The translations under genes were made by a program, and so were the position numbers. The notes under the pieces are model-generated. The model searched no databases. It was not told where the DNA came from and was given only the letters and a program-made list of their open reading frames with translations. A stretch of DNA of 35,189 bases from Amoebophrya sp. A120 (Eukaryota; Protista; Dinoflagellata): NCBI GenBank assembly GCA_905178155.1, contig CAJINV010000041.1, positions 36,014 to 71,202 on the forward strand, written 5' to 3'. The stretch's first letter is position 1. Each line of letters opens with the position of its first letter. Below, piece after piece: positions 7,701-30,400 of this stretch.

Positions 7701-10700
7701 CGGGCGGCCTTTCCCCGATGGCACGGCCTCGATTTGACCAGAGGACTTTGCAGAGGACCCGTCAGAGGACCCGAAGATCCTCTGTCGGGTCCTCTGGCCC
7801 AATTTGGACCGCCTGGAGCGACCTTCCCCCGGCGGATCCCCTGGGGGAAGGCGGATCCCCTGGGGGAAGGCGGATCCCCGGGGAACGGGCGGATCCCCGG
7901 GGAACGGGCGGATCCTCGGGGAGCGGGCGGATCCCCTGGGGGAAGGCGGATCCCCGGGGCGCGGGCGGATCCCCTGGGCGAAGGCGGATCCCCTGGGCGA
8001 AGGCGGATCCCCGGGGAACGGGCGGATCCCCGAGGAGCGGGCGGATCCCCTGGGCGAAGGCGGATCCCCGGGGAGCGAGCGGACCCCCGAGTAACGGGCG
8101 GATCCCCTGGGCGAAGGCGGATCCCCGGGGAACGAGCGGATCCCCGAGCAGCGGGCGGATCCCCGGGGAACGGGCGGATCCCCCAAAAAAATCCACAAAG
8201 CGAAATCACGACGCTATGCCTATTTTTTTCCCGTCATTCTAAACACAAAAAAACCACGCTGCCGCCGTGGTTTGTTGGCTTAGGTCTCAGAGCGTCAGGG
8301 TCTCAAAAAAAAACCTGAAAAACTTGTGATACTGTCCTGCCAAAGCATAGTTTTTTGCGAAACAAAGACTTGCAACGCCGATTATTTGATTTGCAAAGTG
8401 TCGTTGGGCTCACTTTATTTCCTTTTGATGCAATGTCCCGTCCCAACCTGCGCAGCCAGGCCACTCGCAACCGTCTCTGCTTGGCGCGAATGCACAAGGG
8501 CAGCACAGTATGCAAGAAAACAAGAGCAGTTGTGTTTATGTCTATCAAACATTTTCTGACGAGAACAGCACCTACGGGCTGGCACGACAAGAAAATATCG
8601 CCATTGACGAGGACCACGACAGCACTGTTGTAAGAACATAATTCACCACATTGCATCCCCTTTTACTTTTAGGCACAACGAGCAGGAGTGTGACTGCCTA
8701 GTAATTTTTTTGCAATAGAAGAAACAGGAGACACAATAAACACAGCCCGGCTTATTTTCTTGGATACGAAGTAAAGCTGTAGCTCCAGCCGTCGCGGACC
8801 AGGAGATCAACATCCCCTACCCAGACTTCGAGCAGTTTTTCGACACGGAGCTAACCCGCGCAAGAAACGAAAGACGGAGCAGCATGCAATCCCTGTCGGA
8901 GCGTTCTCCCGGCGGAACCTGCGACGCCGCGTACGTGGAAGGCCTGGAGAGGCAGGTGGAGAACTTGAAGTGGGACATCGAAAACACCACCAAAACCGCA
9001 CGTGCAATGTGCGTCGCCGACGTTATCAAATGCAAATATGTTTGGGTCTGGAAGATTGCTAGGTTTGTCATGCATATTTTGTATGACCCACGATGCCTGT
9101 AATGCATGACCTAGTATGATTATCACAGACTTTATTTAGAGGGCACTCTCCCCTGCTCCGCATGAGAAATGCCCTCCCCACGTAGCACAGCCTGTAATCC
9201 TCTACATACAAGATATATTTTGCTCGAATCCAAAGACAGCATCGGAAATTGCACCCTTCCCGACCCAGACATATTTGCAATGCATAAGCATGCAAGGATA
9301 TCTATCTCGTGCAAAATTGATGGCTGGGCTTGAGAAGGCGTAAACGCTCCGCGAGAACGCCGCGGCCGGGCCGAGGACCGAAACTCTGGGGCAACATCCA
9401 GTGGCCGGTCGGCCAACGGTTGCTTTTGAAGGCATGATTTTTTAAAAAAGGAACGAACAGCGAAAATTTAAAAGTATGCTTGGCTGCGCTCTGCAGTCCG
9501 ATTCCCCCAAATGAGCACTTGCATTCGCGGCCCAGACAACATCACAGTGCTTGCATTCGATGTCGGCAAGATTTGGCGCAGCAATTTAGCTGGGAACTGA
9601 CGGAAAACTTTCGGCTGAAACGCCAGACAATCGACTTGGAAAGCGATTTGCGTAAGGAGAAGAAGAGGGCCGCAGCCTTCGAACGGCAGAACGCGGAGCT
9701 GCGTGCGGGAAAAGGGTTGAAAGATGACTTCATCAACCCCTACGCCAATGCCGCACTGGTCACCTATCTCGTGAAGAAGTTTCCCACCGAACTTGAAGGC
9801 GGCACAGATGCCATCCGCATTGAGCACGCCGTCGCGACCGACGCCGCGAGAACCGCAAACTGCCTGATGATGGAGGGTTACTACAACGATCTCCATGTGC
9901 TCGAGGGCTTCGTTCGTGCTGAATACGACAAGCCGGAAATGCTGCCACCAGCGGTACAGGAAGTGCTCCAACGATCCACGCCTACCTTTAGCTCCATAAC
10001 CTATCCTTCATAAAAACGCTCTCACGCGCGCCTAGTGGTCATGACCATTTGCATTTGACGCAAAGGCATTTGTCATGCACCGTGGCACGACGGTGCTCCA
10101 CGCACAACGGGTAGCCAGACAGGTTGTGGTCGCGAGCCGGCGTCTTCAGGTGGAAGACCAATAAAACTGCGAGTATATCACACACATTTCTTCGTGGCGC
10201 GGGTGTGGGAACGTTTTTACCCAGAATGAAGCCGCGCCCAAAGTTGTCTCTACGGCTTCCTCGAGACAGGTCGGCAGCAAGTTTGAGAAGGACGACACCA
10301 CAACGTGGATCTATCCTGTAGCAAAACTGGCCTTCTGGTCTCACACGTTCAGCAAAGTCTGTGGTGCAAAATTTTATTCTACAAATGAGTTTGTCTTGCA
10401 GAAAGGCAAAAAAAGGTTGTGGCATAGGTTTAGGGTTTAGGGTTTTTGGCAGGAGGCGACTTCTCGTCTGTATTCCGGGTCGTATTTTACGTATTTTTCC
10501 AGCCCACTCCTGTCAAGCTGAAATGGCAACGCTTCTGTTTGACCACTACCCACAGCTCCAATCTCGATATCTGGTAAGGCAGGTGTGAGTAGTGTCCGCC
10601 CGCATGATGTTCCGTAAATTTTCCTGCTTCACAGACTGGAGGTTCTTTTTGCTTTGATACAATCACGACAGACTTCACCGACGCAGACCGCACCAGTGCG

Positions 10701-13700
10701 GCAATCACCGATCTCAAATCTGCGCACCGTCTCATCCAGCAGATGGCACTGGATAACGCGAACATGACCCAGCACGTTGCAAGCATGCGGGAAGCACTGC
10801 AGCAGGCGTACGAGGAACAGTGTCTGTCCGAAATGGAATGCGACTACCTCGTGTGCGAAACCTACGACTCCGTAGACTCCAGGATCCGGAAACTCGAAGA
10901 AGACTACCCCGGCTTGTGGGATCAAATGTGCAGCTACTGTCGAGCAGACGAAATCGTGCCAGGCGATGATGCCGACTGGCACCAGTTCTTCAGCAGCATA
11001 CCTACGATCGAAAGGAGGGCTAAGGAGAAAGCACGACAGGCTATGCTACGAGAGGGTGAAACACTGAACCTGTCATGTCAGTCGGCACTGAAATGTACTG
11101 AACAAGAGAGCACTTGCTTCGTTTAGGTTTACGTTTCAGTACCTTGGTCAGAAATAAAAGTGGTCGGCCGCTTTGTCTTATGCAGTGTGATGTAGTACAA
11201 AGACAGTCTCCTAATCTGCAGGCACATTCCAGCTCAAAATGACATGACTGACAGACATTTTTCCGCCTGATCTTATCCGAGAGAAAAATCCCCCATCCCC
11301 GTACTGAAATGAAAACTATGTGATGCGGATTTGCGTACACGAATTGCCTCGGACTGCAGCGAAATTTCAAAAGGCAGCCCCCCGGTCGCTTGGTCGACCC
11401 AGCGAGCGGGGGGGTACCGGAAGAGGGCGGCCTGCCTTTGCTGCTTCAGTTTCTGGGCGGCACGCTACCCGCAGGCGGCGCAATTTTCAAGGGGCCGCCC
11501 CCCGGTCGCTTGGTCGGCCAAGCGAGCGGAAGGGCGGCCAGCCTTGTCCGGGCCACTTCCTGGGTGACACGCTGCCCGCAAGTGGCGCGTTTTTTAACAT
11601 TGTACACAGATGCAGACGCCTGCGTGGCGAGTAGCATTATTTCGTTGGGGCTTGACTGTTTTGTCAGCCCTTCGCCAAACAGCTTCGGCAGCAAAATAAC
11701 AAATAAAAGTTGGCTGCCGTTTATGTAGTACAGTACGGGCTACTCTGTGTACACGTAATCAAGCATTGCAAATCCCCTTTTTGGCATGCGGAAGGCAGGG
11801 AATTTTTCTTCTCAATACACGTTTTGACGATTTTGCAGCGACATGTGCGGGGATCGGAACGCTATTTCCGCCAGCCGGAATGATCTGTAGTGCGACACCC
11901 GAATCAAAAACAGCATCTGAACTCGCCGAACTATCAGCGAAATATATCGAAGCAGAAAATACTCCAGCACACGCAGCGAAGATGAACCACAGTGGGGCCA
12001 GTCAGAGGCGCTTCGTCCCTCAACACGGACGGAGCTCCTCCAAGACCGCCCCGGCGGTTCGTTAATCTTGCATGAGACACTGGCGGCACGGGAACTTGAA
12101 TGCAGCGGTGTTTCCGTGCCCCATGCTGCAGCTGTGACTCGTGGAGGCTTTTTGGTTTCATAACTTTTGAAAACCCCGTCGCAGCAGCACTTCATTTTCG
12201 GCTCCAGATATGACGGCGAAAAACCAAAGTAAAGCCGGCGGCGGTGAAATGCGTTGCGCCATACTGTAAGATTGAGCGATTCTTCGCAGACTTTCTAAGC
12301 GTCTTTAGTCCGGTTTTGCTTTGGTTTGCAGCCCATAATCAGAAATGGCGCACGAGCTTTTCTTCAAGACCAGGACGCTGAAAGAAACATTGGAAAAGCT
12401 GGCCAGTGCAGAGAAGCGCCTAAAAAAACTTTCGGATAAGGCGACTACAACGTACGCAAACACTTATAATTTTGTCGAATGTTCAGTGGCAATCCATGGC
12501 AACACAGAAAGTAGAGTACCCAGGCTCCATTTCGCGTTCACATACGCATCGTGACAAATTTTATTACAGATACTTACAGATTGAACGAATAAAAAACTCA
12601 ATAAAACAGCTCTGCGGGGGACCCCAACAAGCCAGCGGTACTCTTCCTTCTGCAGACGCACTTACATGGTCGGTTCTGCTTTTGAACACCTGCAAGCTAT
12701 CATGCAGATATGGTTTCTCTGCTGCGTACTAAAGTAGCGGACATTGCAGAAAAGTTTCTGTCTGGAGTAGGCTGTTTGCATGAGCCGCAGTTTTATCGAT
12801 ATGGATTACGGATTATCAGATTTATGTTTTTGGCATGCAAGTAGATCCCCTAGCCCTAGGCACCTAGTTACAACATGCATATCCGTGAAAGGTATCGGAC
12901 GGGCGCGAAGAGGCCCTACTGCTTCAGGGGGAAGAAATCAAACGGCTGCGGCAGACACAAGACGCGCTGTCGCGCGAACTGTACAACGAGAACATGCTGA
13001 AATACACCATGCAAGACCAGGCACGCGCCGACCGGTGGAGAAAGGTGATGCACAAAGAAGGCAAGCTGACAGAGAATGAAATCGAACAGAGGGTGGCGCA
13101 TTGGTTAAGGTAAGGCGATGGACAATATTTGTTCGCATCTAATAGACCCTATATTAGTTTTTGGCATGGACCGCCCGCACGGCTGTGGCATTTCTATTTC
13201 ATTTTTACCGTCCGTCTATCGCCGCCACGCCGGGTTTTTGTATTTTTCAGTGCCGAATGCAAATCACGAAAAGCGGCTAGATGCGAACACGGTTTTCCTT
13301 ACCATGTCGAACTCTTGCAGCCATCCTCGCGTGGACGCGCCAAACACTTCATTTTTGCAAAGTAAACACCAAGTGTGGTGCCAAGATATCTAATTGTGCA
13401 CGATGAGGTGCTTGCTTCTTGTTTTTGCATCAAGCTGTAATTCCCAAAACACCTACGTTTTATGTGGATGTAGACGAAAAATTTATCCCGGAGTAACGAT
13501 GTACCTTGGCAGCAACGGCAGGAGGTTTGAAAGGTCCATACCCTGGAAGCCCTCCAGAAGTCTTTCGCCTGGAACCAGTATCACCAGTGGGACTCCGAGA
13601 TGCAAGCGCAGTTCGTTGCCGAGACGCAGCAAACCTCCAGCGCTGTTTCGGGCGGTAGCAATGCTGGAGACGGGAATGGCGCCACCAGCGGAAGTGAAGC

Positions 13701-15580
13701 AGGAGGACAGCATGTTTTCGCTTATGATACAAAAAATGCTCTCGCGCGCAAGCGGGACTGGTACAAATGAGTCACTCACTCCTTTATTTCCCCTGCGACA
13801 TCTTCAGACTCTTTGCACCTCATGTCGCGTCTCTAAGCATCATCTGTAGCAGTGGAACTGTGCGCCAGAGCATTTTTCCGAATCACACCCTCGCGACCAT
13901 CAGCCGAGACCCGGTGCTCGCGAAGCAAGCCCTCATCCAACAGGCGGGCGAGTATCAAATGCAAAAATGTCTGGGTCTGGAAGAGCGCCACACTTGTCGT
14001 GCAGGTTTTCCATGACTAATGAGGTCTGGTATGTAGGACATAGCATGAGAAATTCTGCGAGACCTCTCTAATACCTATCCTGCATGAGAAACTGCGTCTC
14101 GATTAGGTGAAAAAAGGGCAGCTTTTGGTAATCATGCAACACAGATTTTTACATTTTTCAGATTTAGCATGACAAGTTGCATCCTTCCAGACCCAGACAT
14201 TTTTGCATTTCATAGCGAGATCGAGAAGTTGAAGTCGGAGAAAATCGCGTTGGCTATCAAGTGAAAATATGTCCTGCGGTGGAAACTTGTGATGCTAAAG
14301 TGTGGACGATGCAAGCACTTCTGGATGGAGCCAAGCATAACAACTATCCAGAACGCTTTCCTAAGTGCAGCCCGCATGACAAACTGCGTTTTTGTATGAG
14401 AAAAGAGGCTGCGGCTTTTGGCGGTCATACAATACAAATTTCACAGGCATGTCAGATCAGCATTACAACTTCGAACGTTCCAGACCCGGACATATTTGCA
14501 ATGCATATGGGCCAAAGAGCTGCAACAGCGGGTCACAGTAGCCCGGTACAAGGAATTGTGTCTATCCGAAGCACACCCGGACCTGAAGCAGGAACTGGAT
14601 ATAAGCACTGTAAATTAGGATGCTTAAAGTGCGGAAAATTGTGCCGAACTTGTCATGTTAAGTATCCTACAGTACATGACAAGTCAGTCCACCATATGTC
14701 ATGAGGATAAGCGTGGTTTTCGAATCCCAGCATCACATCTTTCCGCACCGAAGCATGCTGTTTTCCAAACCATAAGAGAAACACCGCAACGATTTTTCCA
14801 AGGGGGCGAACCACTGTGTGACCAAGCACTTCGAGGCGGCGTCGGTGTACGCCAAAAACGTCACCGGTTTTTTCCAGCACACGAACGGTGGTTGCAACTC
14901 TATCAAGTGCAAAAATGTCCGGGTCTGGAGGAATGTAACTTGTGATGCTGCGTTTGGAATCCAAAAACATCTGTATTACATGAGCAGCAAAGGGAAGGCA
15001 ACCCTTGCTACGCGGAGAGGGTATCTGTCATGCGCAATAGGCATCAAGAGGGCCTCAAAAAATCTGTGATGCTAGGGCATGCATCACAGACATCATGGCT
15101 CATGCAAAATGTGCATGACAAACTCCCCAAATCTTCCAGACCCAGACATATTTGCATTTGATAAACCCCTTCGAGGAGCAACAGTCGGACGCCGGTAGAG
15201 GAGAGACGGGAACTACCCAGCCCCCGCGGTCCGCTGCACCCCGGACGGGCGAAGCAACAGCTAGTAACGCAGGCACGCACAACTCGCTGCCGACGACCGT
15301 CTCACCCGTGCCGGCAGCAGGTACTACGCCCGCATCAAGTAGCAGCAGCAGTTCTGCCGCACCGCGAACCCTGTTACCGCCGGACACGCAAGTACGTGCC
15401 GGGGGCGCGGCAAGCTCGAGCAGTGTCGTTCCCAGAACGGCGATGGACGCCGGAGAACCATGCAACAACCCCTCCACCCAGGACTCCCTAGTAGCAACTC
15501 GCAGACAGCAATCATCTTCCCCGACGCAGGGCGCACCGCTCCGGAAGCGACGGCATACGGTCACCGGATATCGGAGGTAA
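4779..15580 (+). CDS. multi-exon hypothetical protein, paralogue 1 (S/Q/G-rich GSQPSN repeats, central helical/coiled-coil region, C-terminal RKRRHTVTGYRR)
   Basis: Exons linked across introners (e.g. NFSS|QYAGKTQTGGSQPSN; QQAGE|IEKLKSEKIAL|AKELQQ); colinear similarity to paralogue 2; several junctions unresolved, so start and single-gene status are inferred. Confidence 0.6.
5706..5907 (+). repeat. coding tandem repeat, 45-57 bp units (NVxxAQSS...GSQPS)
   Basis: aacgtg...gcgcagtctagc recurs at 5706, 5751, 5808, 5865. Confidence 0.85.
6439..6706. mobile_element. introner family A
   Basis: tatcaaatgcaaaaatatctgggtct ... agacccagacatttttgcaatgcata; DR gtccc/atccc; frame restored into another GGSQPSN motif. 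Confidence 0.92.
6803..6987 (+). other. candidate canonical GT-AG spliceosomal intron
   Basis: gg|gtaaac ... caacag|g; AT-rich, no TIR; joins GATG to LLVDRTHDEAAA in frame. Confidence 0.65.
7567..7830. repeat. 114-bp tandem repeat, about 2.3 copies
   Basis: tggcc(c/t)aa(t/c)ttgg(a/g)ccgc at 7567, 7681, 7795. Confidence 0.85.
7831..8184. repeat. 19-bp GC-rich minisatellite, 19 units (ggcggatcccc(t/g)ggggaa(c/g))
   Basis: ggatc cores from 7834 to 8176, exactly 18 x 19 bp apart. Confidence 0.95.
8509..8766. mobile_element. introner family E
   Basis: tatgcaagaaaacaagagcagttgtgtttat ... ataaacacagcccggcttattttcttggata; flanks cacag/cgaag; frame restored (GQHSKAVAPAV). Confidence 0.75.
9024..9286. 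mobile_element. introner family A
   Basis: tatcaaatgcaaatatgtttgggtctggaag ... cttcccgacccagacatatttgcaatgcata; DR decayed (gacgt/agcat). Confidence 0.88.
10002..10228. mobile_element. introner family B-like (degenerate)
   Basis: tatccttcataaaaacgctctcacgcgcgcc ... ggcgcgggtgtgggaacgtttttacccagaatg; flanks taacc/aagcc; frame continues (SITAPKVVST). Confidence 0.65.
11274..11817. mobile_element. introner family C copy with nested insertion
   Basis: tatccgagagaaaaatcccccatcccc start matches 31758/32912; end gggaatttttcttctcaata; no clear DR. Confidence 0.55.
11338..11749. mobile_element. candidate MITE with TA target duplication (Tc1/mariner-type signature), GC-rich, internal 120-bp duplication
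   Basis: TA at 11336-37 and 11750-51; imperfect TIR cacgaattgcctcggactg / cagtacgggctactctgtg; interrupts the family C motif atttg(a/c)gta|cac; ccccccggtcgcttggtcg at 11378 and 11498. Confidence 0.5.
13953..14214. mobile_element. introner family A
   Basis: near-perfect 31-bp TIR; perfect DR gcgag; frame restored. Confidence 0.95.
14255..14507. mobile_element. introner family A (diverged)
   Basis: tatcaagtgaaaatatgtcc ... ggacatatttgcaatgcata; DR ttggc/tgggc; frame restored. Confidence 0.88.
14901..15163. mobile_element. introner family A, opposite orientation to 18034
   Basis: family A TIRs; DR aactc/aaccc; interior is the reverse complement of the 18034 and 9024 interiors. Confidence 0.92.
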
Positions 15581-16094
15581 CAGAAAATGCTGGTTCATTA
15601 CTGTGGTAGATTGTAATGCGCAGAGCGGCGTGTATGACTGACTTTTGCATGCCCTGTTCGAGTTAGCATCAAAATCATCTCAGCATTACAAACTAACATT
15701 TGCGATGAAGCGGCAACGATGCTTTTCCATGTCACAGTAGATAACGATGGCGGAAAGAAGGACGGACGGTGAAGGGAGGACGCAGTGGCGCAAAAGCAAA
15801 ACCGTGTCTCATTCGATGTCAAATACATAGTAACAGTACAAAATCAGTAGTCAGTTCCAGTGTTTCAAGTTATGATTTTTTTGCTATAAATTTTACATCG
15901 CAATATAGCATTACTAACTCACGATGCGTCTTACCAGTTGGTGCACAGATAAATAAAGTATGATCTCAACAAACAGGCAAAATTTATATCTCCACGTATC
16001 CGTTTCGACAATGCAGTATAGCGACAGCACGGATGTTATTTTCTCGTTTCTTCAGGGCTAGTTACTGATAATTTACAGTTTGACGAAACTCAAG
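15581..16094 (+). repeat. 3' flank of paralogue 1, homologous to 25888-26359
   Basis: shared colinear blocks aagaaggacggacggtg, aaataaagtatgat, gtttga(c/t)gaaactcaag. Confidence 0.8.
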
Positions 16095-16802
16095 CGAGGC
16101 GTTTTTAGCGAAAAAAGCCATCAATCAGAATGGATACTACAAATCCACCAGCCAATGGTAGACATTTAGCATGAGCAAGGACTACATTGATGCAGGCGAG
16201 ACTTCCAGAGGAGAAAATTCGCCGACAAAAAAGAAAATGACAATATCCAGAATGGTCACACGCATAGGGCTATCACATGAAAGATCCTTTTAGATGCAGA
16301 AACGAAACTGTATACTTCCATCGACGAAAAAAATCATTTCTAGAAAATTCAAGTCCTTTTGCTCCTTCACAGGTGTGCTTACGACAGCACAAAACTGCCA
16401 TTCTACTCACGCCAGTTCTTGGAAGTAGTTGCATCTCAGGGCGTTCTGCAGCAGGATGTGCGCGCTGTCTCGTATTAATTTCTGAGCAGCCGTAGTTGCG
16501 GTCAGAGTCGCGTTTTTTTTTTTTTTTAAACAAGAGTGGTATAACGATCACGAGAGACGTCAGAGTGAGCGCGATTGCCATGATAAATACACCTATATTA
16601 GCCCGCTCGCACATACAATGAGCCGACTCTGCTCGCGTTGATGCCACGAAAAGGGCCAGGATGGGGTTGAAGCGCTCCACCCGTACGTCGTTGCATTTCG
16701 TTTCTTGCTTCTCAGGAGCTGCGCCAGCTATGTTTTGCTTCTCGCGGGAATCGTAGAGGACGTAGACCTTGCGCACACGCGGACCGGGGTGCGCTACGAA
16801 GG

Positions 16803-19800
16803 ATGGAGGATCCGCGGAACGCGAGAGTACCCCCTGCCGAAAATGCACAGGTTGCAGGCTCGCAGCCGACCGCATCTGGCGGCGCAGCGTCTCACGGAGG
16901 GGGGCCGGCGCCGAAGAGTGGTAATACCACAAACCAGTACAGCCAGGGCATGCAGCTAGCAAGCAACGAGCAGGGGGACCCGCAGGAAACCGGCGTGCAA
17001 TTGGGAATGATCCCACACATGACAAGCAGTTCCTCGGAGGTCGTCCTGCGGCAAACCAATAGGACGCAGCTCAACGAAATGGAGCCGTCCAGTTACCAGC
17101 AGACTGGAGGATCCCAGCCAAGCAACCTGCAGTTCGGCGGGGCGCAGTCCAGTTACCAGCAGACTGGAGGATCCCAGCCAAGCAACCTGCAGTTCGGCGG
17201 GGCGCAGTCCAGTTACCAGCAGACTGGAGGATCCCAGCCAAGCAACCTGCAGTTCGGCGGGGCACAGTCTAGTTACCAGCAAACTGCGGGTTCCCAGCCG
17301 AGCAACCTGCAGCTTGGTGGGGCGCAGTCTAGTTACCAGCAGACTGGAGGATCCCAGCCGAGCAACCTGCAGCTCGGCACAGCACAGTCTAGTCACCAGC
17401 AGACTGGCGGATCTCAGCCAAACAACCTTCAGTTTGGCGGAGCACAGTTTAGTTACCAGGAGACTGGAGGATCCCAGCCAAGCAACCTCCAGTTTGGCAG
17501 CGCACAGTCTAGTTACCAGCAAACTGCGGGGTCCCAGCCGAGCAACCTGCAGCTTGGTGGGGCGCAGTCTAGTTACCAACAAACTGCGGGTTTCCAGCCA
17601 AGCCACTTTCACTTTGGCGGAGCACAGTCTAGCACCCTGCACACCGCGGGATCCCAGCCAAGCACACTTCAGTTCGGCGGAGCACAGCCTAGCAACCTGC
17701 ACAGTGCAGGATCCCAGTCAAGCAACCTCAACTCGGCGCAATCAAGCAGCCTGCACTACACAGGTATACCCGCCCAGTCGAGCAACGCACAATTAAACGG
17801 CAGCCTGCAGAGCAGCGGTGTGCAAATGGATGTCGTGCAGCAGCAGACAAATCTGCAGGTCAACGGCTCGCAACCAAGCAATTTGCAATCAACGCTGCTG
17901 AACCCAGCTAGCCCACCGGAGCTTCTCGGCCAGCATGCCGTGCCGAACACGGAACCAGCTGCGCATCAACAACCCGCACCACTTCATCTCCCGAACCCCG
18001 CGAACGCACCGCAGGTGGCTGGTCCGCCGGGAGTATCAAGTGTAAAAATGTCTGGGTCTGGAAGATTCCGGAATTTGTGATGCATCTTTCGTATGATCCG
18101 CGACGCATGTAATGCATGATCTAGCATCACAGATTTTTAGAGGGCTTGCTGATGCCTATTCCGCATGAGAAATGCCCTCTCCACGTAACACAAACTGGAG
18201 TCCTGTTGCTGGTCACGTAATACAGATTTTTTTGGAATCCGAAGACAGCATGACAAGTTGCAATCTTCCAGACCCAGACACTTTTGCAATCCATAGGGAG
18301 ACGGAGGAAGCTCGTCGCCAGGAACGGCAAGCGCGTCCATGTATCACCCGCAAATATGTCTGGGTCTGGAACGATGCAAGGTTTGTCATGCAGGGCTAGC
18401 ATGTCTCCCAAGTCTGTCATGCACGTTAGTACCCAAAAGTCACGTTTCTCTGTTACGCAGAAACGCAGTTTATTGTCATGCAAGATAGGCAACACTTAGT
18501 AGCCCAAAAATTTGTCATGCTTGGCTGTCAATGGAGGCGTCGCGTGGTTCGCCACATAGCATCACAAGCTTCCAGACCCAGACGTCTTTGCAATTGATAC
18601 TATGCGGTCGGGCACAACGATCTCGTATACAGCCTCGTCCCTGCGTCACACGACTCCGCACCTGAGGGAGGAGCGGAACTTCGCGATAGAGGATCTTCGC
18701 TACGTTATTGAAATGACAAAACCCTGCACGCCTCCAGTCGGAAAGAATAAATACATAAGAGTTGAGGGACTTGCTCATGCCCTGAGTCAACGCTCCGTCA
18801 AGCGGTCAAGGATCTCCAGGCGCCGGCAGATTCGTGTTATTCCCAAAAGCCTTACATGCTTGCGGAAGAAACACAGTGGCGCACGATGCAAATCCAGCAA
18901 TCGAAGTAAGTATTCTTTCACACATGGCATGAGGATTTTTTATTTCAATATTTGCAAAGCGGCAGCTGGACCAAGCCAGGCGCGTGAAGGCGTTAGCAAT
19001 TCAACAGAGGGACCACTACAAACAGCAGGCGGACCATATCTATGGCGCTGAGAGCACTGGATGCCCCAACCCAGAAAGAAGCTGTTGCTTGAATTCTTGT
19101 AAAGCCTCGTATCATGCACACATGGAAAACAGCATAAAGGATAAAAAAATTTTGTGCATAGTCATGTCGCAAAATACTTGCGAATCAAACGCGCCATAAG
19201 TATTCCTTGTAGGCAAACTTTTTCCATTTTCTAGCGGATCTTTACAACAACCGTATGGCTTCAAGTGTTGTAAAAGCAGAAGTACTCCTTCTGGAGTTGT
19301 CGCTACTAGTTTTGGCTGAATAACGCGAAAGACGAAAACTAAAACCTGTGAAGTGAAGACGAAAGCACCTGTCGTGTAACGAGCCCATCGCGCCATTGCT
19401 TCCACTATAGTCGTGATCAGACTATAGCCGCTGAACTTCTTTCGATTGCAGTGTGGCGAATGTTGTCAAAAAGCGTTTGCGTCGCTGCTCTGCAGCGTAA
19501 ACTCGAACTGAGTATAGACAGCAGGTGCAGGCTCTATGCATTGCAAATATGTCTGGGTTTGGAAAGGTGCAGAAAAGTGATGCTCCTTTCCAGGCACACA
19601 AAAATCTGTCATGCATGAGTGGCAAAAGCTTCCGCTTTCGGCGAAGCTGAGAAAGAATTTCTCGTGCTGAGTAGGCGTTGCAAGGCTCTCATACAGCCTG
19701 TGAGGATGCTAAACTCTGCAATCCAGACCTCGTGAGGCATACGAGACCTGCATGACAATGTCTGTACTTCCTCGGATGCAGACATGCTTGCACTGAACAG

Positions 19801-22800
19801 GTTTGCAGTTCATACAATGCCTAAATAAGCATCAGCGCGATGTATATTCCCGCGTTGCCAGCCTCGAAACGGAGCTCCAAAGCGCCCGAGTTCTAGCAGA
19901 ATTCTACAAAAGCAGGTTAGATTTCTACAAAATGAACGACGCAAGGGACGAGGAAAGTAGAAACCTGGAAGAACAAATCCGCAACGAGCAGGGGAAGTGC
20001 TGGGGCCTTCGCCACAAGCTTCGGGATGCAGAATCCGAGCTAAGGAGGAAGGAGACGGAACTGCAGCTCGCTGAAACCCGCTGGAATTCCCTAAAGCCCA
20101 GCGTCGCAAAGCTGCTGGAATCGGCCGAAAACCACGAGAAAAGGGCCCTGAACAACTACCGCGAATACGATTGCTTCAACAAAGCCGACTGCGATCACTG
20201 GTGCAAGACGTTTGTGTTGTCGCGCGACTCCTTCGCGCGCGACATTTCCGTCCTGCAAGCTTTCATCGCCAAGACCGTGCCACGTGAAGCAATCCCCGAA
20301 GACGTTGCTGCCATCGTGAACGAGCTGGCCGACTCCTCCGACTACTGCTGGCCGGATCAGGACACCCTTGTGATCAGCAACCGGGACAACACGCCGTATG
20401 ACCCGGACAAGAGGAACACCTGGCCTGCAACGGATTTAGCAGATAAAGAACGCGTCAGCGGTACCATCACCTCCCTTCCGGACGCGATTGACATCATCTC
20501 CCAACTTGCAATCACCTGCTCGCATCGCATGCAGGAAGCAACCATGTACAAGGCCGAGCTGGAGCAAATGTGGGCAAAAACGTCCTCCGACGACACTGCC
20601 TTCGACCAGGTAGACAGCAAACGGAGCGGTAGTAGCCTGCCGCGCAGTGCAGACCAGCGGACGCAGATGTTGGATACGCGAATTGCGGAGCTCCAAAAGC
20701 AACTGCAACAGAAAGGCGCAAAGCTGGCTGAGACCGACTCGAACCTGAACAATCTAGTGGAGCGCACGCGACGATTCTTTGCCCGGGAGGAGAACAGACT
20801 ATCCGAGGAAAAAACAAAAGAGCTCGAGGAGGATTTGGACAAGATGCGCAGCCGGGCACTGGAGCGGTGGGATAACAATGCGTCCCGCCTGCAGGCGGCG
20901 GTGGAACGAGCACAGCGACAGCTTCATCAACAACACTGCTCAGCGGCGGTGGACAACACTGCTCTTCAGCAGGCCGCGCAGCAGTCGGACGGCCCCACCT
21001 ACATCGACTCGGCACTAGAAGCCGTCCGCGACATGCGACCACTAGTGGAAACACTGTCCCAGCCTGCAGCCCTTGCAGATGCGCACAACAAAATGAAAAA
21101 CGGGAAAGATGAAGTAGCCGATCTCCGAAATCTCGTGGAGGAACTGCATTGCGCGCGCATCAGGAATCAAAATGAAGAGGAGGTCGCACGACAGGAGGCC
21201 AAGCTCCAAGAAATTATATCCTCGGGAGGCATCGATCAGCCTTCACCTAGCGCAGCAAAATTCGATACGGGCGATGCGTCAGAGTGCCACTGCATGTCAA
21301 AAGAGTACGTCTGCATGGCTGGGTGAAGCTGTTTGTAGTGCGCGCACCTAGAAGAGGTCGGCCAGCTGGGCTAACAGCTAAGTAGCCTGCTAAGCTCTCG
21401 GCCTCTCTTGTTCTTTTGGCGCCAGGAACTTGCAAACAGCTTCACAAGGTTCGAGCTAAATTTGTCCTCGTTTTTGGGTGAAGGCGCCTTTCCTTGCAAT
21501 GACGCCTGTCGACCAACTACCCCGCAACCATATCCTACAGAACAGCACACACATACAAGAAAAGTTGATTTCTTGTGTCGCTGTGTTTCTTATAGCACAA
21601 GAAACGTCGCCATGCTGATTCTCAAGAAGAAGAAAAACCTGTCATACAGCAAAATGAAGATTGAAATGAGGTCGTCGTGGGAGTACGTTTGTGATGCTGC
21701 TCAGCAGGACGTTTTTGTAGCTCGTCATTTCTTGGAGGACTTTATCCTTTTGGACGCTTTAGTATCTACTCCTTGACGAACTGCATCACAAACGCTTTCT
21801 GATATGGTATGGGTGTGCTGTTCTGGAGGGTAAGCCATCGGGGCCGCACAAAGGGTTGACAACGTCATCGACGCGATCGGAGGTGTGGGTATCCTACAGA
21901 AGAGTACGCACATACCATGGTCAAAAAGCATTTGTCTTGAAAGGAGAACCTCTTTGTCTGCCGAACAACACAACCTTTCCTTCCTGATTTTTCCTGTTCC
22001 GCATTACAGATTACGTCTTCCATGCCAGAAAGTGACCCATCTTCTGCTCGCCGCATCACGGCCTTGTCACTGGTGCTGGCAGAGGAGCAACAAAACTGAT
22101 TGCTTTTTTTTTGTGCTGTGTGTGTGCTTTTGTTCGCAATAATGGGGCAGTTCCGATATGATTGAAAAGTTGCTCCACATCCAACAGAAGACCAAAGTAG
22201 TGTTCTGCTGCGAAAAGCCAGGCATAAGGGGTAACATTTCTCCTTCGGCATGAGTTTGTTCCCTACCACGCAGAAGACTGCGCGCTCTCTTGCGAAGATG
22301 ACGGGCAACTTTTTCCAAAGTGATACCACCGTAGTGAACACCAGTCTGTACGACCCCACCGTCGGCGCAGCTACTCGGTCCCTGCGAGAGCTCGCCCCCG
22401 CAACTAATCCAATCGCTGCTAAGCTTGCGTCGCAGGTGGAGGACCTCGCCCGGGAAGTGTGGTTTAAAACTAGGCTTCTGCGCGAACGCGACCAAAAGTC
22501 CCCCGGCTCGGCGGCCATCAATCCAGGCATCAGCAGTGGTGTTTCTACTCCCGCCGCGGCCTCGGATCGGATGACGAAAGACGAGCTTCTGCAGCGGCAG
22601 GCGACGCAGCTCGCGCAGGTGCGGTTCGAGCGCGATCTCTACCGCACCGCCCTTCGCAGGTGCTACGTCGACCAGGGGTTGCAGTACTTCGACGTATGGA
22701 GACGAATACACTCCTGTGCCGGGAGAAATCAGTTTGACAGGCTGCTCGCTGATGTTGATGTTTGTTTGCATGTATACTCAGAATACTACGCAGGGGATGC

Positions 22801-25800
22801 ATGCATGATCGCAAAACCCTTAACCTGAGTCAGTGCCTTTGCTCCGTCACAGGAGGTATTCGTGGTCTATAGACGTCCGGCGACATGTATGAGTTCTATG
22901 ACGAGGAAGCCAACGCACGAAGCCGATCCGTTCGCCTGCTCCACAGGATCCGGGCGGTCACCAAGCATGCTGACAAGCTCATGGACCAACTATCGCATGC
23001 AAATATGTCTGGGTCTGGAAAAGTGGAACTTCGGTTGAATGTTTGGGAAGATGCAGTGTGTCATGCAAAGACTAAGTTTGTCATGCGTGCGACACATCAG
23101 ACGCCGCCAAACGAACCTGTCATGCTTGGCTGCACTCGAGAACACCAGACTCATCCATACTATCGCATCACAAATTTCCAGACCTTGCCATATTCGCAAT
23201 GCATACCCATTGCACAATAACTACGTCTTCCAGCAGCAGCTCCTGTGGAACGAGGCCCTGGAGGCTGAATTTCGTGCGGATCGGAAGGGCCCACAAAAAA
23301 ACAACCTACCGGCCCTTAACCGTGCGGCGGAAGAACCTGCTAAGGCCTCGACAGGACTTTCGGAGAGCAGGTATAGAAAAGACTAGACATTGTAAGACTA
23401 TGTCGAACAGCAAATAGTTTGCATTCGTGTTGCTGTTCACAAATGTTCTTGACTATGGTCCTTGGCAAGACTCGTTGAGGTTGTTTATTTATCGTGCAAA
23501 AAAACAAAATTGTTCCAATGGCAAAACAGCACTCCTGCGGGGCGCCACTATAGCGCCACCGAGTTGTCCCAGCAGCTGGTCGCTGTGTCCAACAGTGCTC
23601 TTCTGGCACGGGAAACGATCCTGAAGCAACAGCTCCATATCAAAAAGCTCCTAGCCGACCAGGACGTTCTCAAAGTTGAGCTCAAGCAACAAGTACGCAC
23701 TGCAAAAATGTCTGGGTCTGGAAAGATGCGAGGTTGTTTTATGCAGACCCTGGATTACGCAAAAATTTATGTTGCATGAACGCCAAAAGTTGTCGCATTT
23801 TTTCTACGCCGCAAGTGCCGACTTTCTCATGCAGGATAGGCATCAAGACACCTGGACAAAAGGTGAAATGCTTTTTCGCGCATAGCTGAGCATCTGCATG
23901 GTCCAAAAGATGCATGACAAACTTGCGCAGTCTTGTTCCACACCCAAACAACATATTTACAATGCATAAGAAGCCGGAGCAAGCAAGTACCTGCGACTCT
24001 CCATCGCCAAGACGAAACCCGAGCTGAAGGAGGAAGTGATATCAAATGCAAACATGTCTGGGTCTGGAAGACTGCAGATTTTTGTCATGCTGTTTTTGCA
24101 TGATACACAAGGTCTGTCATGGAAGCCCTAGCATCACAGCTTTCGAAAACGTTCCGCAATGCTTAATCCGCATACCAAATCCTCCTTTTTGGTGACAGGA
24201 AATTGGCACCCTTTGCTGCCTATGCATGAGACATTTGCCTGTGTAATTCGCATCACAAGTTCGGATCCTTCCAGACCCAGACATATTTGCATTGGAAAGG
24301 TCACGAAGCTTTACCATTCGTTTCTGAAGCAGGACTGGACCTTCCTCGAAGAGCTACCCGCGGATATGGACCAGGACCTAGTCGGCTCTGCGAGGTCGTA
24401 CGCGTCGCAATACCGCATCGAAGAATCTATCCACGCCATAGTACAACAAGGCTGCTAGAATGTTGCGTCCTTTTACCTGCATGTTGCAGTGCAACAAGGC
24501 TCGTGGGAAATAATCTGATGGACCCCAACGAACATTTTGTCACGCGGCGAGCATGATAACAGGCAGCAGTAGCCGGCTTTTGTACAACAGCTCACAGTGC
24601 AATTGTGACAAAAGGTCGATTGAACGCAGAGCTAGCAAAAACCAAACAATGGCGTGCATAGATATTTTGCAACGGAATACGTACTACACTTTTCTCGTCG
24701 CGTACGGAGCCCGCTTCTTCATGGACCCACGTTTCGTCGAGATTGCCGATCGCAGCGAGCAGACGTTTATTCACCAACCTTTGGACACTACGACCTCCAA
24801 AACCGAGATAAATGCGTCGACTTCTTCTTCTGCACCAAAAGTCCGACAACACATGCCGCAGCTGTACGACCCTACCCTCGCTGCCGAAATCTTTCAAAAG
24901 CAGGCGGAGCAGATCAAAAAACTCGAGCAGGAAAAGGACGCCCGGAAGGCCATCGCTGGTCGCAGGACAGCGGAGGGACTGAATAATAACTCCAGAAACT
25001 ACGAACCTACAGGAGGACTCGCCGGCGAGTTGACAGCTGCCGGTTTCTCCTCCTCGTCCGGTGCCCCAAGTAGCAGCTCGGCGAAACAGGTGTCGGTGCC
25101 AGAATCTCTGTTGCCGCGGGTGGAAAGGAGTGATACTACGGGAGCGGCGGCGAGTTCGAGCAGTGTTAGTGGGAAGGAGGTAGTGGAAAACAACAGCAGT
25201 GCAACGCCTGCGACGTCGCAAGGGCTATGGATTGCAAAAATGCCTGGGTCTGAAACTTGTAATGCTGTCTCTGGATTCTAAAAAAGTTTGTATTGCATGA
25301 CCAGCAAGAGGACTCCAGTTTGTGCTACACTTCTCTCTGGGCATTTCTCATGCGGTAGAGGCATCACAAAGGCCTCTAAAAATCTGTGATGCTAGGATCA
25401 TGCATCATAGACGGCGTTGGTCATTCAAACTATGCATGACAAACTTGCCATTTTGCATTGGATAAGGGCCAACCACGAACAACTTATCCGACAGGAAAGT
25501 GCAGCCAGATCAAAAGAAATAATGAATTTGTCTTGCTATTTTTCTGGAACAAAGGACGAGTCATTTGTGATGCTGATCATCTGCAAGACAGACGAGAACT
25601 TGTCACGCAAAACGAACATTGTAATGCAACATTGGGATGAAACAAGGTTGGCAAGAAAATTTGTGATGCTCAACAGGCAGGAAAGAGCTTTTTGTGGCAC
25701 AACAAAAAAAGCATGGGAAATGGTATTTTAGAATTTCATCTGGGTGCACTTTTCTCTCGGATACAGTTCCTCCGCTAGTACTACTAGCACTGCTGCAGTA

Positions 25801-25887
25801 TTGAACCGCAGAAAACAGTCGTCCTCGCCGACCGAAGGCGCACCGGTGCGGAAGCGGCGGCACACGATTACAGGCTACCGCAAGTGA
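16803..25887 (+). CDS. multi-exon hypothetical protein, paralogue 2 (20-aa QSSYQQTGGSQPSNLQFGGA repeats, coiled coils, C-terminal RKRRHTITGYRK)
   Basis: Long exons 16803-18033, about 19803-21322, about 22250-22771; junctions across introners restore frame; colinear similarity with paralogue 1; some junctions unresolved. Confidence 0.65.
17088..17745 (+). repeat. 60-bp coding tandem repeat, about 11 copies
   Basis: lines 17101 and 17161 are identical 60-mers; copies diverge progressively toward the 3' end. Confidence 0.97.
18034..18295. mobile_element. introner family A
   Basis: family A TIRs; perfect DR gggag; frame restored (PGDGGSSSPG). Confidence 0.95.
18342..18599. mobile_element. introner family A
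   Basis: tatcacccgcaaatatgtctgggtctggaa ... ttccagacccagacgtctttgcaattgata; DR ccatg/ctatg; interior similar to 27494 copy. Confidence 0.92.
19535..19799. mobile_element. introner family A (diverged right end)
   Basis: tatgcattgcaaatatgtctgggtttggaa start; cagacatgcttgcactgaaca end; exact right boundary uncertain by about 1 nt. Confidence 0.7.
21531..21832. mobile_element. introner family F
   Basis: tatcctacagaacagcacacacatac ... gtatgggtgtgctgttctggagggta; DR aacca/agcca. Confidence 0.85.
21890..22141. mobile_element. introner family F
   Basis: tatcctacagaagagtacgcacatac ... gtgtgtgtgcttttgttcgcaata; DR gtggg/atggg. Confidence 0.78.
22991..23205. mobile_element. introner family A
   Basis: tatcgcatgcaaatatgtctgggtctggaaa ... 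tttccagaccttgccatattcgcaatgcata; DR ccaac/cccat; frame restored (MDQLHNNYVF). Confidence 0.88.
23694..23968. mobile_element. introner family A
   Basis: tacgcactgcaaaaatgtctgggtctgg ... catatttacaatgcata; DR acaag/agaag; frame restored (LKQQAGASKY). Confidence 0.88.
24040..24298. mobile_element. introner family A
   Basis: family A TIRs, right end ggaaa; DR agtga/ggtca (both changes synonymous); frame restored (KEEVTKLYHSF). Confidence 0.9.
25226..25464. mobile_element. introner family A, opposite orientation to 18034, right TIR internally deleted
   Basis: perfect DR agggc; right end retains only cattttgcattggata. Confidence 0.92.
25485..25763. mobile_element. introner family D
   Basis: tatccgacaggaaagtgcagccagat ... 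atctgggtgcacttttctctcggata; DR caact/cagtt; removal yields the C-terminus matching paralogue 1. Confidence 0.9.
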
Positions 25888-26359
25888 CGCAAAATTCTTC
25901 CTCATTACAACCATGTCAGTGTGTAATGCATAGGATTGTGCGGAAGTGCATGATGGGTGACTGCGGATTTTTCTCGATCTTGGAAAAGAGATGAGGCGTA
26001 TAGCATTGTTCAAACTGACATGTGCTGCAATGACGAAAATTTTCCATTTCATAGTACATAATTTCTTGCGGCAAGAAGGACGGACGGTGCAAGGAGGACA
26101 CAGTGGTGGAAAATTGTAAATCTCATGTGATGTAAAGTAAGTACAAGTAAAACAATACAATTTTAGTAAGTACACAGTTCCAGTATATGCAAAGTATCAC
26201 TTTATCAGTTCTTGCTGCACAGGTGAAATAAAGTATGATTTCGAACTGACAAAATTTCAGATCAACAGCGGTTTAGTTGCAAGATTTCTAACCAAGTGCT
26301 CTCGATCTTTCTTTTGGCACCAAGAACTACTGACAAGTTACCGTTTGATGAAACTCAAG
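25888..26359 (+). repeat. 3' flank of paralogue 2, homologous to 15581-16094
   Basis: 17-nt identity at 26073-26089 vs 15755-15771 plus other colinear blocks. Confidence 0.8.
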
Positions 26360-27432
26360 TATAAGTGTTTCGTAGTAAAAGCAAAAGTGAACCCCAGCGA
26401 AAAACAAAGGTGAATTATCAGAAGCAATTTTTGATTACAAAGAGGAAACAAAACAATCGAATAGTAATGATTAGTGTCAGAATACCGGGTCAAAAAAATA
26501 AAGCACTGAGCGTTTATGCGGAAGTAAAACGATAGGAAAAAAAGATAAACAAGACGATCACAAGCAGAAAATGTAGTGGTGGTTTCAAGATTGATATTGC
26601 AGGAGAACCGGATGTACCGACAAGCGACACAAGCTGTCTCGTTTGTAGCATTAGCAAGCCGAAACTGTACAAACAGCCTACACTTCTAAAGCGAAAATTC
26701 GATATTGTAGAAAGCAAAAGCGCTTTGACAACCGCAAAGTGACTGCTCGATTTAGCGATGGTTTTTTTGGTTGTTCAACATGTGAAGGTATCATTGTGAG
26801 GATATTTGTTCCACTCTATGCTATGTGTTGTTTTTTGAGTTGCGTTGGAGTTGCGTCCCAAAAGTCGTCTTGCGTTGGAGCTGCTTCTTGTCGCACAGTC
26901 TTGTGGCACAGTCTTGTGGCACGACATCAGTTGTGGCTGCCATAATTGAGTTGGAAATTCTTGTAAATGCTATTCTCTTCCCAATCCGTCGTGACTAGGG
27001 TGCGTTCGAAATGCCAAAGCTGCATTTCGGCTGCCAGGACTCCATATGTCGATGAATTGGGGTCCTGATAAAACCTGAGAGTTCTGGTTAAATTGCAAAA
27101 TTATAAACCAAGATGGACCTTGTCCACGTCGGTCAACAAACCGTTCTTTGCTGCTTCCTCCCCGCTTTCACAACCTGGTAGACGACAACTCCTAAGACGG
27201 CTGCGAGCAGACGAATCACCTGAGCGCGGCGAGGACCATTTTTGCGCTCTTCTGCAATACAGTGGAGAAGTTATTTGGCGCGCCTGCGGACACGAATTGC
27301 GCAGCGGCAGCGAAAATGCAGGACCGCACAAACGGCTCTGCCTGCTGTCGATCCACCTCCTGAAGAACTACACGTGCAATTGCAATTTCGCAAGACAAGT
27401 TACGGCGGATCCACTGTCCCTGTCCGTGAAAA

Positions 27433-30400
27433 ATGACAGAGATCAGCGTCAAAGTCGCGGTCCGGGTTCGGCCGTGGAATGACCGTGAGAAACTATCAAA
27501 TGCAAGTATGTCTGGGATTGGAAGTTTGCTACATTTGTCATGCATGTCTAACATGAATCAACAATCTGTGATGCATGGGCACCAAAAAGCCCTCTTATCT
27601 GTCATGCAAAATCGCAGTTTGTCATGCGTAATACGCAACACCTAGCAGCCCAAAAATTTCTCATGTTTGGCTGCGGATTGCAGGTGTGCGCCTACTGATT
27701 CACTTTTAGCATCACAACTCTCCAGACGAAGACATACTTGCTTTGCATAGAAGCAGATGCAGTGTAAACTCGCGGTGGAGATGCCGCCGACGTCGGGAAA
27801 CGAATATCAGAGGGCACATGTCTCCCTTCCCCTCATTCGTAGTGCAAAAAGGCCAAATCCTGTCGGAACTCTTTGGCTGTGCTTGCATGACAAGTTCTGG
27901 AAGCTGCCGCCCAAACTGCACTTTGCTCCGTGCGTGCGTTTGTAATGCTCAGACTGCATTTTTGAGGTGGTTTGTGATGCTACAAATGCATCCTTCCAAA
28001 TTACGGGGAGGGGGACGAGTTGTGTACTCGCATCACGAACTCCCGAATACCACCGTTCTGAAAGACCTGGACGACACGGGAGCGGAAAAACAATTCACGT
28101 TCGACTACTCGTTCTGGTCGCACGATGGTTTCGTGGAGGATGAGAAAACCGGGCTCACGGTGCCGGATGTTGCCAGTGTGGCCGCCGGCGGGGGCGGCGG
28201 CAAGAAAGGCAACAGCAAGCCGGTATACGCGAGCCAGCAGACGGTTTACGACAAGCTCGGCGTCACGGTGCTCAATAACGCGTGGGAGGGCTACCACTGT
28301 TGTCTATTCGCGTATGGACAGACCGGCGCTGGGAAGTCGTACTCCATGGTCGGGTACGGGGCGAACAAGGGCATCGTGCCGCTGGCGTGTGACGAAATCT
28401 TCCAGCGCATTGACAAAAACAAGGACAAGAACCTCGAGTACGACGTGGTCGTGTCCATGTTGGAAATCTACAACGAGAAGGTGCAGGACCTGCTGATTCA
28501 CCCCAACAAGCGGCCGGTTGGAGGTCTGGAAATCCGCGAGTCGAAGGAGCTGGGCGTGTACGTGGCAAACCTGACCAAGTGCAAGGTGACCAGCTACAAG
28601 GAGATCGACCAGATCATGGAGCAGGGAATCGGGAATCGCACCATTGGCAGCACGCTGATGAACGCCACCAGCTCGCGGGCCCACACGGTGCTCGGCATCG
28701 AGTTGAAGCAGCTCTCACACGTCGGCGACCGCGTCGGGACGAAGTATCCTGAGGAAAAACGTCCCTACCCCAGAGTTTTCATGCAGATTTGCAATGACAA
28801 GGAAATTTCTGATGCGCACACCCATGGTAGACATTTCCATTCGTGTTTTGGAATTTGTGATGCTATGAACAGGATACCCAGATGAATCTCTGATGCAGCT
28901 GCACTTGCTTAAGTACCTGCACTATGCTACGGAGTGCATTTTGTCATGCGTGACTCCCAGAACTCCTAGGTTTGTGTTGCAACATCCCCATCTTGACTCT
29001 GGTGTGGGGACGTTTTCACTCAGGATACGAAGATGTCCGTCATCTACCTGGTGGACTTGGCTGGCAGCGAGAAGGCCGCGAAGACGGGCGCGACGGGAGA
29101 CCGGCTGAAGGAGGGCATATCAAATGCAAAAATGTCTGGGTCGGGCAGATTGCGAGATATGTCATGCTATAATCTGGCATGATTCTGAACTCTGTATTGC
29201 GTGGCCGCACAGAGCTCCTCCTCCCTGCCATGCTAAAATGCAGCTTCTCATGCGGAATACGCAACTCAGAACCATGAACATAAACTTGTCATGCTTGGCG
29301 GCGCATTAAAGTGAGCTCACTATTCCCTTCCTTGCATCACAAGTTTCCCGACCCAGACATTTTTGCACTTGATAGGGCAGCGCGATCAACAAAAGCCTGT
29401 CCTGCCTGGGAAACGTGATCGAGAAACTGGCGGACGCGTGCAGTGGCTATGATTTGTAAAAACGTCCCCACACCATAGTTGTCATGCTAGTCTGCATGCC
29501 AAAAAAGTTTGTCATGTTGAGCGCCATGAGAGGCATTTTCTAGTAGTGTTTTGGAATTTGTGACGCTATAATCAGAATGATATACTAGATCTGTGATGCT
29601 GCTGAACTACGTAAATAGGATTACACTACGAGGAGACACTTGTCATGCCAAACGACCAAAGCTGGCTGATTTGTCTAGCAGATTTCCCATCTTGACTCTG
29701 GTGTGGGGACGTTTTTACAAATGATAGTGGCAAGGTCGCTCTGAAAAACATCGTGATTCCCTACCGGGACAGCAAGCTGACCCGGCTGCTGCAGAACGCG
29801 CTGGGAGGCAGCTCCTTCACCGTCATGATCTGTGCGATTTCGCCCGCGAGTAACAATTACCAGGAGTCGCTGTCCACGCTGCGGTACGCAGACCGCGCGA
29901 AAAAGATCAAAAACCAGTCCGTGGTCAACGAGGACCCGCAAGACAAGATCATTCGGCAGCTGCGCGAGGAAAACGCCAAACTCCGGGAAATGGTGGAGCA
30001 AGGGGGTGGCGTGCAGGTGGAAACGAAAACCGTCGAAAAGCTGGTGGTGGACGAAGCGGCCATGGGCAAGGCAAAGGAGAAACACGAGAAGGAGATCAAG
30101 GCGCTGGAGGACGCGCTGATCCAGATGCAGCAGGATTTCTTCAAAAAGTTGCAGGAGGAGAAGAACAAAAAGAAGGTCGAAACGGTGGTGGAGGAAAAAG
30201 AGATCGTCACCGTGAAGGAAATATCCTGAGTAAAAACGTCCCCGCCCCAGAGTTGTCATGCAGACTTGCAATGCCAGGAACATTTGTGATGCGCATCCCC
30301 ATGATAAGTAGGCATTTACAAGCGTGCTTTCGGAGTTGTAATGCTGTAACCAGGATACTAAGCACACGGATTTGTAATGCGGCTGTCCTTTCCAACCTGC

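Follow-up and report, generated by a model that had tools for sequence, protein, structure and literature searches.

Amoebophrya is a marine parasite infecting algae. More than 60% of the introns of Amoebophrya sp. A120 lack GT-AG borders, and their splicing mechanism is left open in sections 10 and 16 of the genome paper (Farhat et al., 2021; PMC7789003). According to the parts of that paper available to us, A120 introners have ends that start with TAT, followed by seven loose bases and then a run of at least three A, carry inverted repeats of 8-20 nt at both ends and are flanked by direct repeats of 3-5 nt, while the cut position of these introns is called variable and unknown. The published A120 introner elements form 1954 families. 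Gozashti et al. (2025; PMC12130899), in the accessible portion of their survey, likewise describe A120 introners as diverse inverted-repeat DNA transposons that supply a single gene with many introns, and the survey removed introns that were similar through paralogy. The introners of Micromonas and Aureococcus, as far as they are covered in the accessible sections of PMC11282704, share with the elements described here a MITE-like build, inverted ends, target duplication and seamless removal. In those algae, one splice site is borne by the element and the other is co-opted from the target repeat, resulting in GT/GC-AG introns, whereas the A120 introns analysed here show almost no base preference at +1, -2 and -1. 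Euglenid non-conventional introns (PMC11282704, section 6) are similar in that their borders are non-canonical, their termini pair at a set distance from the junctions and target-like repeats are present, but differ by offsets of +4 to +6 with -8 to -6, by a purine/pyrimidine junction consensus and by belonging to an unrelated lineage.

The window, by which we mean the whole stretch of 35,189 nt that was analysed, carries 23 or more elements, 215-312 nt in length, whose ends are inverted repeats (TAT…ATA) and which are flanked by a direct repeat of 5 nt. The long exon of one of its genes, copy 2 of the pair discussed below, is a 100% match to the 1205-aa protein P0001, publicly named Amoebophrya sp. 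A120. With their TAT…ATA inverted ends and 5-nt target duplication, the window elements are known A120 introners, and they agree with the accessible description in PMC7789003 in the TAT ends with seven loose bases and an A run, the repeats of 3-5 nt, a length of ~240-260 nt and the occurrence in repeated families; orthologues of A25 and A120 were compared there, paralogues here. Position counts over 24 RNA-joined introns gave the end motif TAT-N7-AAA. The preliminary description of this DNA had named six elements, starting at 13953, 14255, 23694, 24040, 25226 and 25485, and all six starts are correct. In five of them, 16-25 of the 26 terminal bases are complementary (14 of 26, ungapped, in 23694), and 3-5 of 5 nt match at their borders. 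RNA contig joints document removal without GT-AG borders for 13953, 14255, 14901, 23694, 24040 and 25485. Element 25226 is retained in the contigs of X3 and X4 and removed in the public model P0001.

Family A, which has a high copy number, is repeated at unrelated loci, including the kinesin gene of the window (27494, 29118), and a 30-nt family-A end has at least 128 exact matches at metagenome loci. Among 74 relatives with enough flank, the right repeat was found in 63; a perfect direct repeat of 5 nt was present in 52 of these 63 and one of any other length between 2 and 10 nt in 0-2, with no clear sequence preference. None of the retrieved metagenome loci overlaps the exons of the paralogues, and neither 25485 nor the decayed introns matched family A.

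RNA support consists of assembled contigs from runs X3 and X4 of one sample, to which a second study (X10) adds the joint 15566>15740 only. X3 and X4 were taken as RNA because precise skips and open frames mark spliced transcripts. X7 contained no exon-exon joint, raw reads of X11 fell on repeat parts only and X10 contributed nothing on copy 2. Seven joint rows inside elements (three in copy 1, four in copy 2) were read as other copies of the family and dropped; the copy-1 joints are those among the joint rows listed, and the X3 record coordinates of the copy-1 contig leave no letter over. The mapped 3' part of copy 1 has 13 exons, which are open over 480 aa to ...RKRRHTVTG-stop, and 12 introns between 11942 and 15740, joined in a single X3 contig and mostly too decayed to be recognised by eye; this contig extends 1940 nt further upstream, beyond the mapped part. 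The stop codon of copy 1 arrives through splicing of its last intron, and the RKRRH tail may be a nuclear localisation signal. In copy 2, X3 and X4 contain 12 junctions between 21215 and 26058, the 9-nt micro-exon counted in, and the spliced frame equals P0001, for which no Pfam family was found, except at element 25226 and at the last junction. The features are listed in Table 1.

Table 1. Positions of the two gene copies, their elements and related features in the window.
Feature	Position	Strand	Evidence
Copy 1, 3' part of multi-exon gene, predicted coiled-coil protein	11826..16347	+	X3 contig, 3986 nt
Family-A element, young, copy 1 only, direct repeat 5/5, spliced	13953..14214	+	RNA joint
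Family-A element, copy 1 only, direct repeat 4/5, spliced	14255..14507	+	RNA joint
Decayed element-type intron of copy 1 (intron 14601-14778), directly after QELD	14602..14774	+	RNA joint
Family-A element, orientation opposite to 13953, spliced	14901..15163	+	RNA joint
3' segment spanning the tail codons, the last intron and 3' UTR sequence, DNA-level match to ~25067-26385	15336..16120	+	DNA alignment
Old element-type intron (intron 15568-15740), last Gly codon, common to both copies	15569..15736	+	X3, X10
Copy 2, paralogue of copy 1, corresponding to public model P0001 (1205 aa)	17829..26700	+	RNA contigs, protein match
Element seen both spliced and retained	21531..21832	+	X3, X4
9-nt micro-exon flanked by two element-type introns	22147..22155	+	RNA contigs, also P0001
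Family-A element, copy 2 only, spliced	23694..23968	+	RNA joint
Family-A element, young, copy 2 only, spliced	24040..24298	+	RNA joint
Family-A element with arm deletions, without terminal hairpin	25226..25464	+	Retained in X3/X4, spliced in P0001
Copy-2-specific element from a different family, spliced, with an aligned empty site in copy 1	25485..25763	+	RNA joint
Copy-2 partner of common last intron (intron 25875-26057)	25876..26053	+	RNA joint

Judged from their sequences, the two segments are real tandem paralogues. They are collinear (blastp E 3e-31 unadjusted; composition-adjusted 3e-14 for the core and 7e-10 for the tail), and the gapless alignment that had been proposed for them proved sound: over 60 residues it contains 17 identities and reaches a BLOSUM62 score of 92, which is the top placement along the 1046-aa translation of copy 2, compared with 14.5±7.1 (maximum 41, n=100) for shuffled segments and 34 for the next-best placement. 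Chance similarity between coiled coils is ruled out by the blastp E values and by the register score relative to the shuffles, and an alternative register on a later repeat of copy 2 (DPTLAAEIF…) scored 34 versus 92. The peptides on which this alignment had been based were recovered by splicing at the RNA joints 13947>14215, 14251>14510, 23690>23971 and 24038>24303. The middle of the protein alignment is gappy, with 19-30% identity and uncertain codon offsets.

Motif scores did not yield a reliable reconstruction of the 5' half of copy 1, and the comparison of intron positions covers residues 42-480 of its mapped 3' part. There, 11 introns of copy 1 stand against nine insertions of copy 2; ten sites occur only in copy 1, eight only in copy 2, and one of the 19 positions is common. 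The common intron lies in phase 2 in the last Gly codon, and its two representatives are mutual best matches among 40 elements (z 7.5). The alignment of the spliced paralogues, suggested as a check in the preliminary description, confirmed over this span positions that differ almost entirely, but it also brought up this common site and a copy-1 intron only one codon away from 24040. Similarly, the final region of copy 1 had been called uninterrupted, which is true of 15168-15566, a single unbroken exon in the RNA contig, but not of the last-Gly intron. Elements 14901 and 25226 have the same orientation and are 76% alike, yet they do not represent one ancestral insertion, as the aligned GAASSSSV anchor falls between their sites. 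An element at 18034 resembles both of them more closely than they resemble each other. Elements 13354 and 22695 are also mutual best matches (z 7.3), about 45 codons apart and in different phases, and were provisionally read as members of an old family.

Our main reading, to which we assign a probability of about 0.8, is that these are tandem Amoebophrya paralogues in which intron positions are almost wholly different because short non-autonomous DNA transposons (introners) inserted separately into each copy once an old duplication had taken place, and in which splicing takes these elements out of the RNA at a fixed register. Insertion after the duplication would have been driven by a transposase. 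The cores of the paralogues are saturated at four-fold sites (8/37 identical), whereas 13953, 14901 and 24040 share 84-88% identity with relatives found at other, unrelated loci; by this measure the duplication is far older than these young elements, which cannot predate it, and unshared positions are to be expected. Elements 25226 and 25485 lie in the 3' segment and their empty sites align in copy 1, which makes them the best case for gain in the window. Since gain and loss are not distinguishable from a pair of paralogues that lacks an outgroup, gain is what we infer, and the phrase 'direct evidence of intron gain' used previously was too strong. Independent insertion after duplication is nevertheless the best reading of the differing elements: this part of the earlier proposal gained from the high-copy family with its target duplications and from the aligned empty sites, but lost some force because polarity is inferred, 25226 is mostly retained and the site at 24040 has a copy-1 intron at one codon's distance. 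Searches for outgroup homologues returned only P0001 and missed copy 1 as well, a weak negative for a fast-evolving protein, and none of 598 matches from a pattern search of metagenome contigs was a relative. Two unique records, both short, came from the field DNA run X8 and showed no difference from the window; coverage in X8 and X10 was small. In section 12 of PMC7789003, orthologues of A25 and A120 are likewise described as having no common intron positions, which was read as gain; intron gain at this locus is a local example of an already published process.

The same distribution would arise if the ancestral gene already carried the introns now seen in either copy and the two copies then precisely lost different subsets, for instance by recombination with reverse-transcribed mRNA. 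Such a history is formally allowed without an outgroup, for any one site taken singly, and the one common intron places elements before at least the homogenisation of the 3' ends considered below, but it would have to accommodate elements that are 84-88% identical to relatives elsewhere while the cores are saturated, and just 1/19 common positions. We consider it very improbable as a general account, although loss is still possible for decayed introns. Hardly less improbable is that a single ancestral intron, having slid or been replaced, accounts for some of the apparent gains. This applies mainly to the copy-1 intron at 14601 and the copy-2 intron at 24039 (element 24040, after EEV), which are one codon (3 nt) apart and both in phase 0, and a second pair of copy-1 and copy-2 sites is 7 nt apart. 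However, the register is gapless on either side of 14601/24039, the two introns differ in age and show no similarity in the same orientation (14602 versus 24040, z 1.3; reverse z 4.1; both scores negative), and when 10 + 8 sites were placed at random, 37% of the trials contained a pair no more than 3 nt apart. The preliminary description had named such a coincidence as refuting its reading; for the reasons given, 14601 and 24040 are read as separate events.

The 3' segment looks younger than the rest of the duplication. About 800 nt including the tail, the last intron and the UTR align between the copies at the DNA level (score 293 versus 31±3), and four-fold sites are identical at 7/9 positions, compared with 8/37 in the cores (p 0.003). 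The 3' ends may thus have been homogenised later than the duplication, in which case 25226 and 25485 would have inserted after both this homogenisation and the common last intron. Alternatively, strong constraint on the tail, intron and UTR could have kept the 3' ends similar without later gene conversion, with the common intron dating from the original duplication. Selection is indeed visible in the last 30 codons, where second positions are kept at 0.83 and third positions at 0.43, but constraint alone would have to explain an alignment of ~800 nt that includes intron and UTR although synonymous sites in the cores are saturated. We regard constraint as the less likely cause, keeping in mind that the four-fold test has only 9 sites at the 3' end; it would alter the dating, not the gain.

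Comparison of the RNA joints with a register profile built from 14 elements outside the RNA-mapped stretches revealed that in 19/24 joints the missing stretch is the element and precisely 5 nt more, which restores the frame. All 19 are compatible with cuts placed 1 nt ahead of TAT and 4 nt past ATA, compared with 10/19 for the next-best offset. When three joints readable as GT-AG are set aside, all 21 non-GT-AG joints fit the 3' offset of 4 and 19/21 the 5' offset of 1. Target duplication blurs the junctions of young elements, whereas decayed repeats give sharp joints; in the seven unambiguous joints, the 3' offset was 4 in all seven and the 5' offset 1 in six. Four P0001 junctions fall outside the RNA data: offset 1 is the sole possibility at one of them, offsets 1-3 are possible at another, and the remaining two permit all. 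After the register was chosen, intron position +2 was T/U in 22/22 rows, and +1, -2 and -1 were near random. Two places do not fit: a piece of the copy-1 contig starts at 11826, where the rule predicts 11822 (the joint itself is not in the data), and the last junction of P0001 is 5 nt from the RNA joint. We did not find a fixed register rule in the accessible text on Amoebophrya introns, but Figures 3 and S19-S23 of PMC7789003 may show it.

Elements are spliced in either orientation, as seen in the oppositely oriented 13953 and 14901, and the hairpin persists in decayed introns, suggesting that the splicing signal may be the terminal hairpin together with the TAT-N7-AAA end motif and not GT-AG. 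The cuts would be made by the spliceosome, given that +2 is always U and that, for a target of the sequence NNAG|G, the register coincides with GT…AG. We lean slightly towards the view that the non-canonical introns of A120 have invariable borders of the form N + hairpin element + NNNN. This would be the register of GT-AG introns with only the +2 U kept, and the terminal hairpin rather than the end sequence would set both cuts, perhaps replacing the missing U1 snRNA. Element 25226 would then be a natural splice-defective mutant, kept in the mRNA as its hairpin was abolished by loss of 18-19 nt in one arm.

No joint across 25226 was present in the complete joint table of X3 and X4; the contigs run unbroken over 24683-25282 and then 25287-25483 before splicing to 25768. 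Retention leads to a stop at 25279-25281 and loss of the tail common with copy 1, so that 18 element-coded residues would take the place of the conserved 40-residue tail. As P0001 splices 25226 and contigs drop rare forms, retention is incomplete and some spliced transcript probably exists. Compared with its closest relatives, the right arm of 25226 is 18-19 nt shorter and the left arm 8 nt shorter. With arms of 50 nt, z ranges from -2.0 to -13.7 in the spliced non-GT-AG introns, 21/21 of which form a terminal duplex, while three GT-AG introns (z +0.3 to +1.1) and the retained 25226 (z +0.3) form none; this split is nearly clean with 35-nt arms (spliced 25876, z -1.5) and gone at 25 nt, and the link between hairpin and retention is one retained element deep. 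Deletion of its hairpin may have left 25226 mostly retained. Its end-motif scores (16.6 and 12.8) are among the best and were rejected as the cause. All 63 family members have strong stems, having been selected for intact ends.

The register with offsets 1 and 4 and the hairpin-less, retained 25226 are the new part of this work, a by-product that outweighs the intron gain in importance. The available supplement text of PMC7789003 does not contain the word 'retention', nor does the available main text of PMC12130899 contain 'intron retention' or 'splicing efficiency'. If true, a fixed register would provide exact borders for tens of thousands of introns, correct gene models and constrain the mechanism, and the retained copy with its deleted hairpin raises the possibility of a genome-wide relation between hairpin strength and splicing efficiency. 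In the RNA-mapped stretch of copy 2, 2/13 insertions are incompletely removed, showing a cost of introner insertion. A strong stem (z -7.1) does not keep element 21531 from being retained about half of the time, with contig depths for the spliced and retained forms of 9.39 and 9.15 in X3 and of 10.3 and 9.08 in X4.

Two open frames upstream of copy 1, the first of the two tandem paralogues, resemble parts of the 1.4-kb intronless exon of copy 2 (10608-11126, tblastn E 0.001; 9600-10010, judged by eye only), and because of these partial matches copy 1 probably has this exon broken into separate pieces. The duplication may span about 10-12 kb, and the GC-rich satellite at 7566-8183 may set apart the 5' part of copy 1. 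The region with Gln/Ser-rich 'GSQPSN' repeats at 4779-6830 of the window is similar to the one at 16671-18033, which runs on into P0001, the public gene model of copy 2.

The last junction of P0001, at the intron 25875-26057, lies 5 nt off the assembled RNA contigs, and the model carries a 21-residue extra tail translated from the 3' UTR; both are probably due to an annotation error. A second element (19535-19799) sits nested within 19036-19818, a long intron in the public model. The intron 23371-23529 has GT-AG borders and weak element-type end motifs in the element register, without a hairpin, and may represent an element intron that has gone back to canonical splicing.

Micro-exons and the kinesin motor gene in the window
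Feature	Positions	Size	Remarks
Micro-exon	22147-22155	9 nt	between adjacent elements; both sides spliced
Micro-exon	25469-25483	15 nt	between adjacent elements
Kinesin motor gene	27430-33965		PF00225; 10 elements

Whereas the elements of the duplicated genes belong mostly to the high-copy family A, those of the kinesin gene are mostly of a second family (6/10), with 2/10 from a third. The closest relatives are neighbouring pairs (31758/32912, 83%; 29448/31412, 82%), and this sequence similarity between neighbours hints at local hopping.
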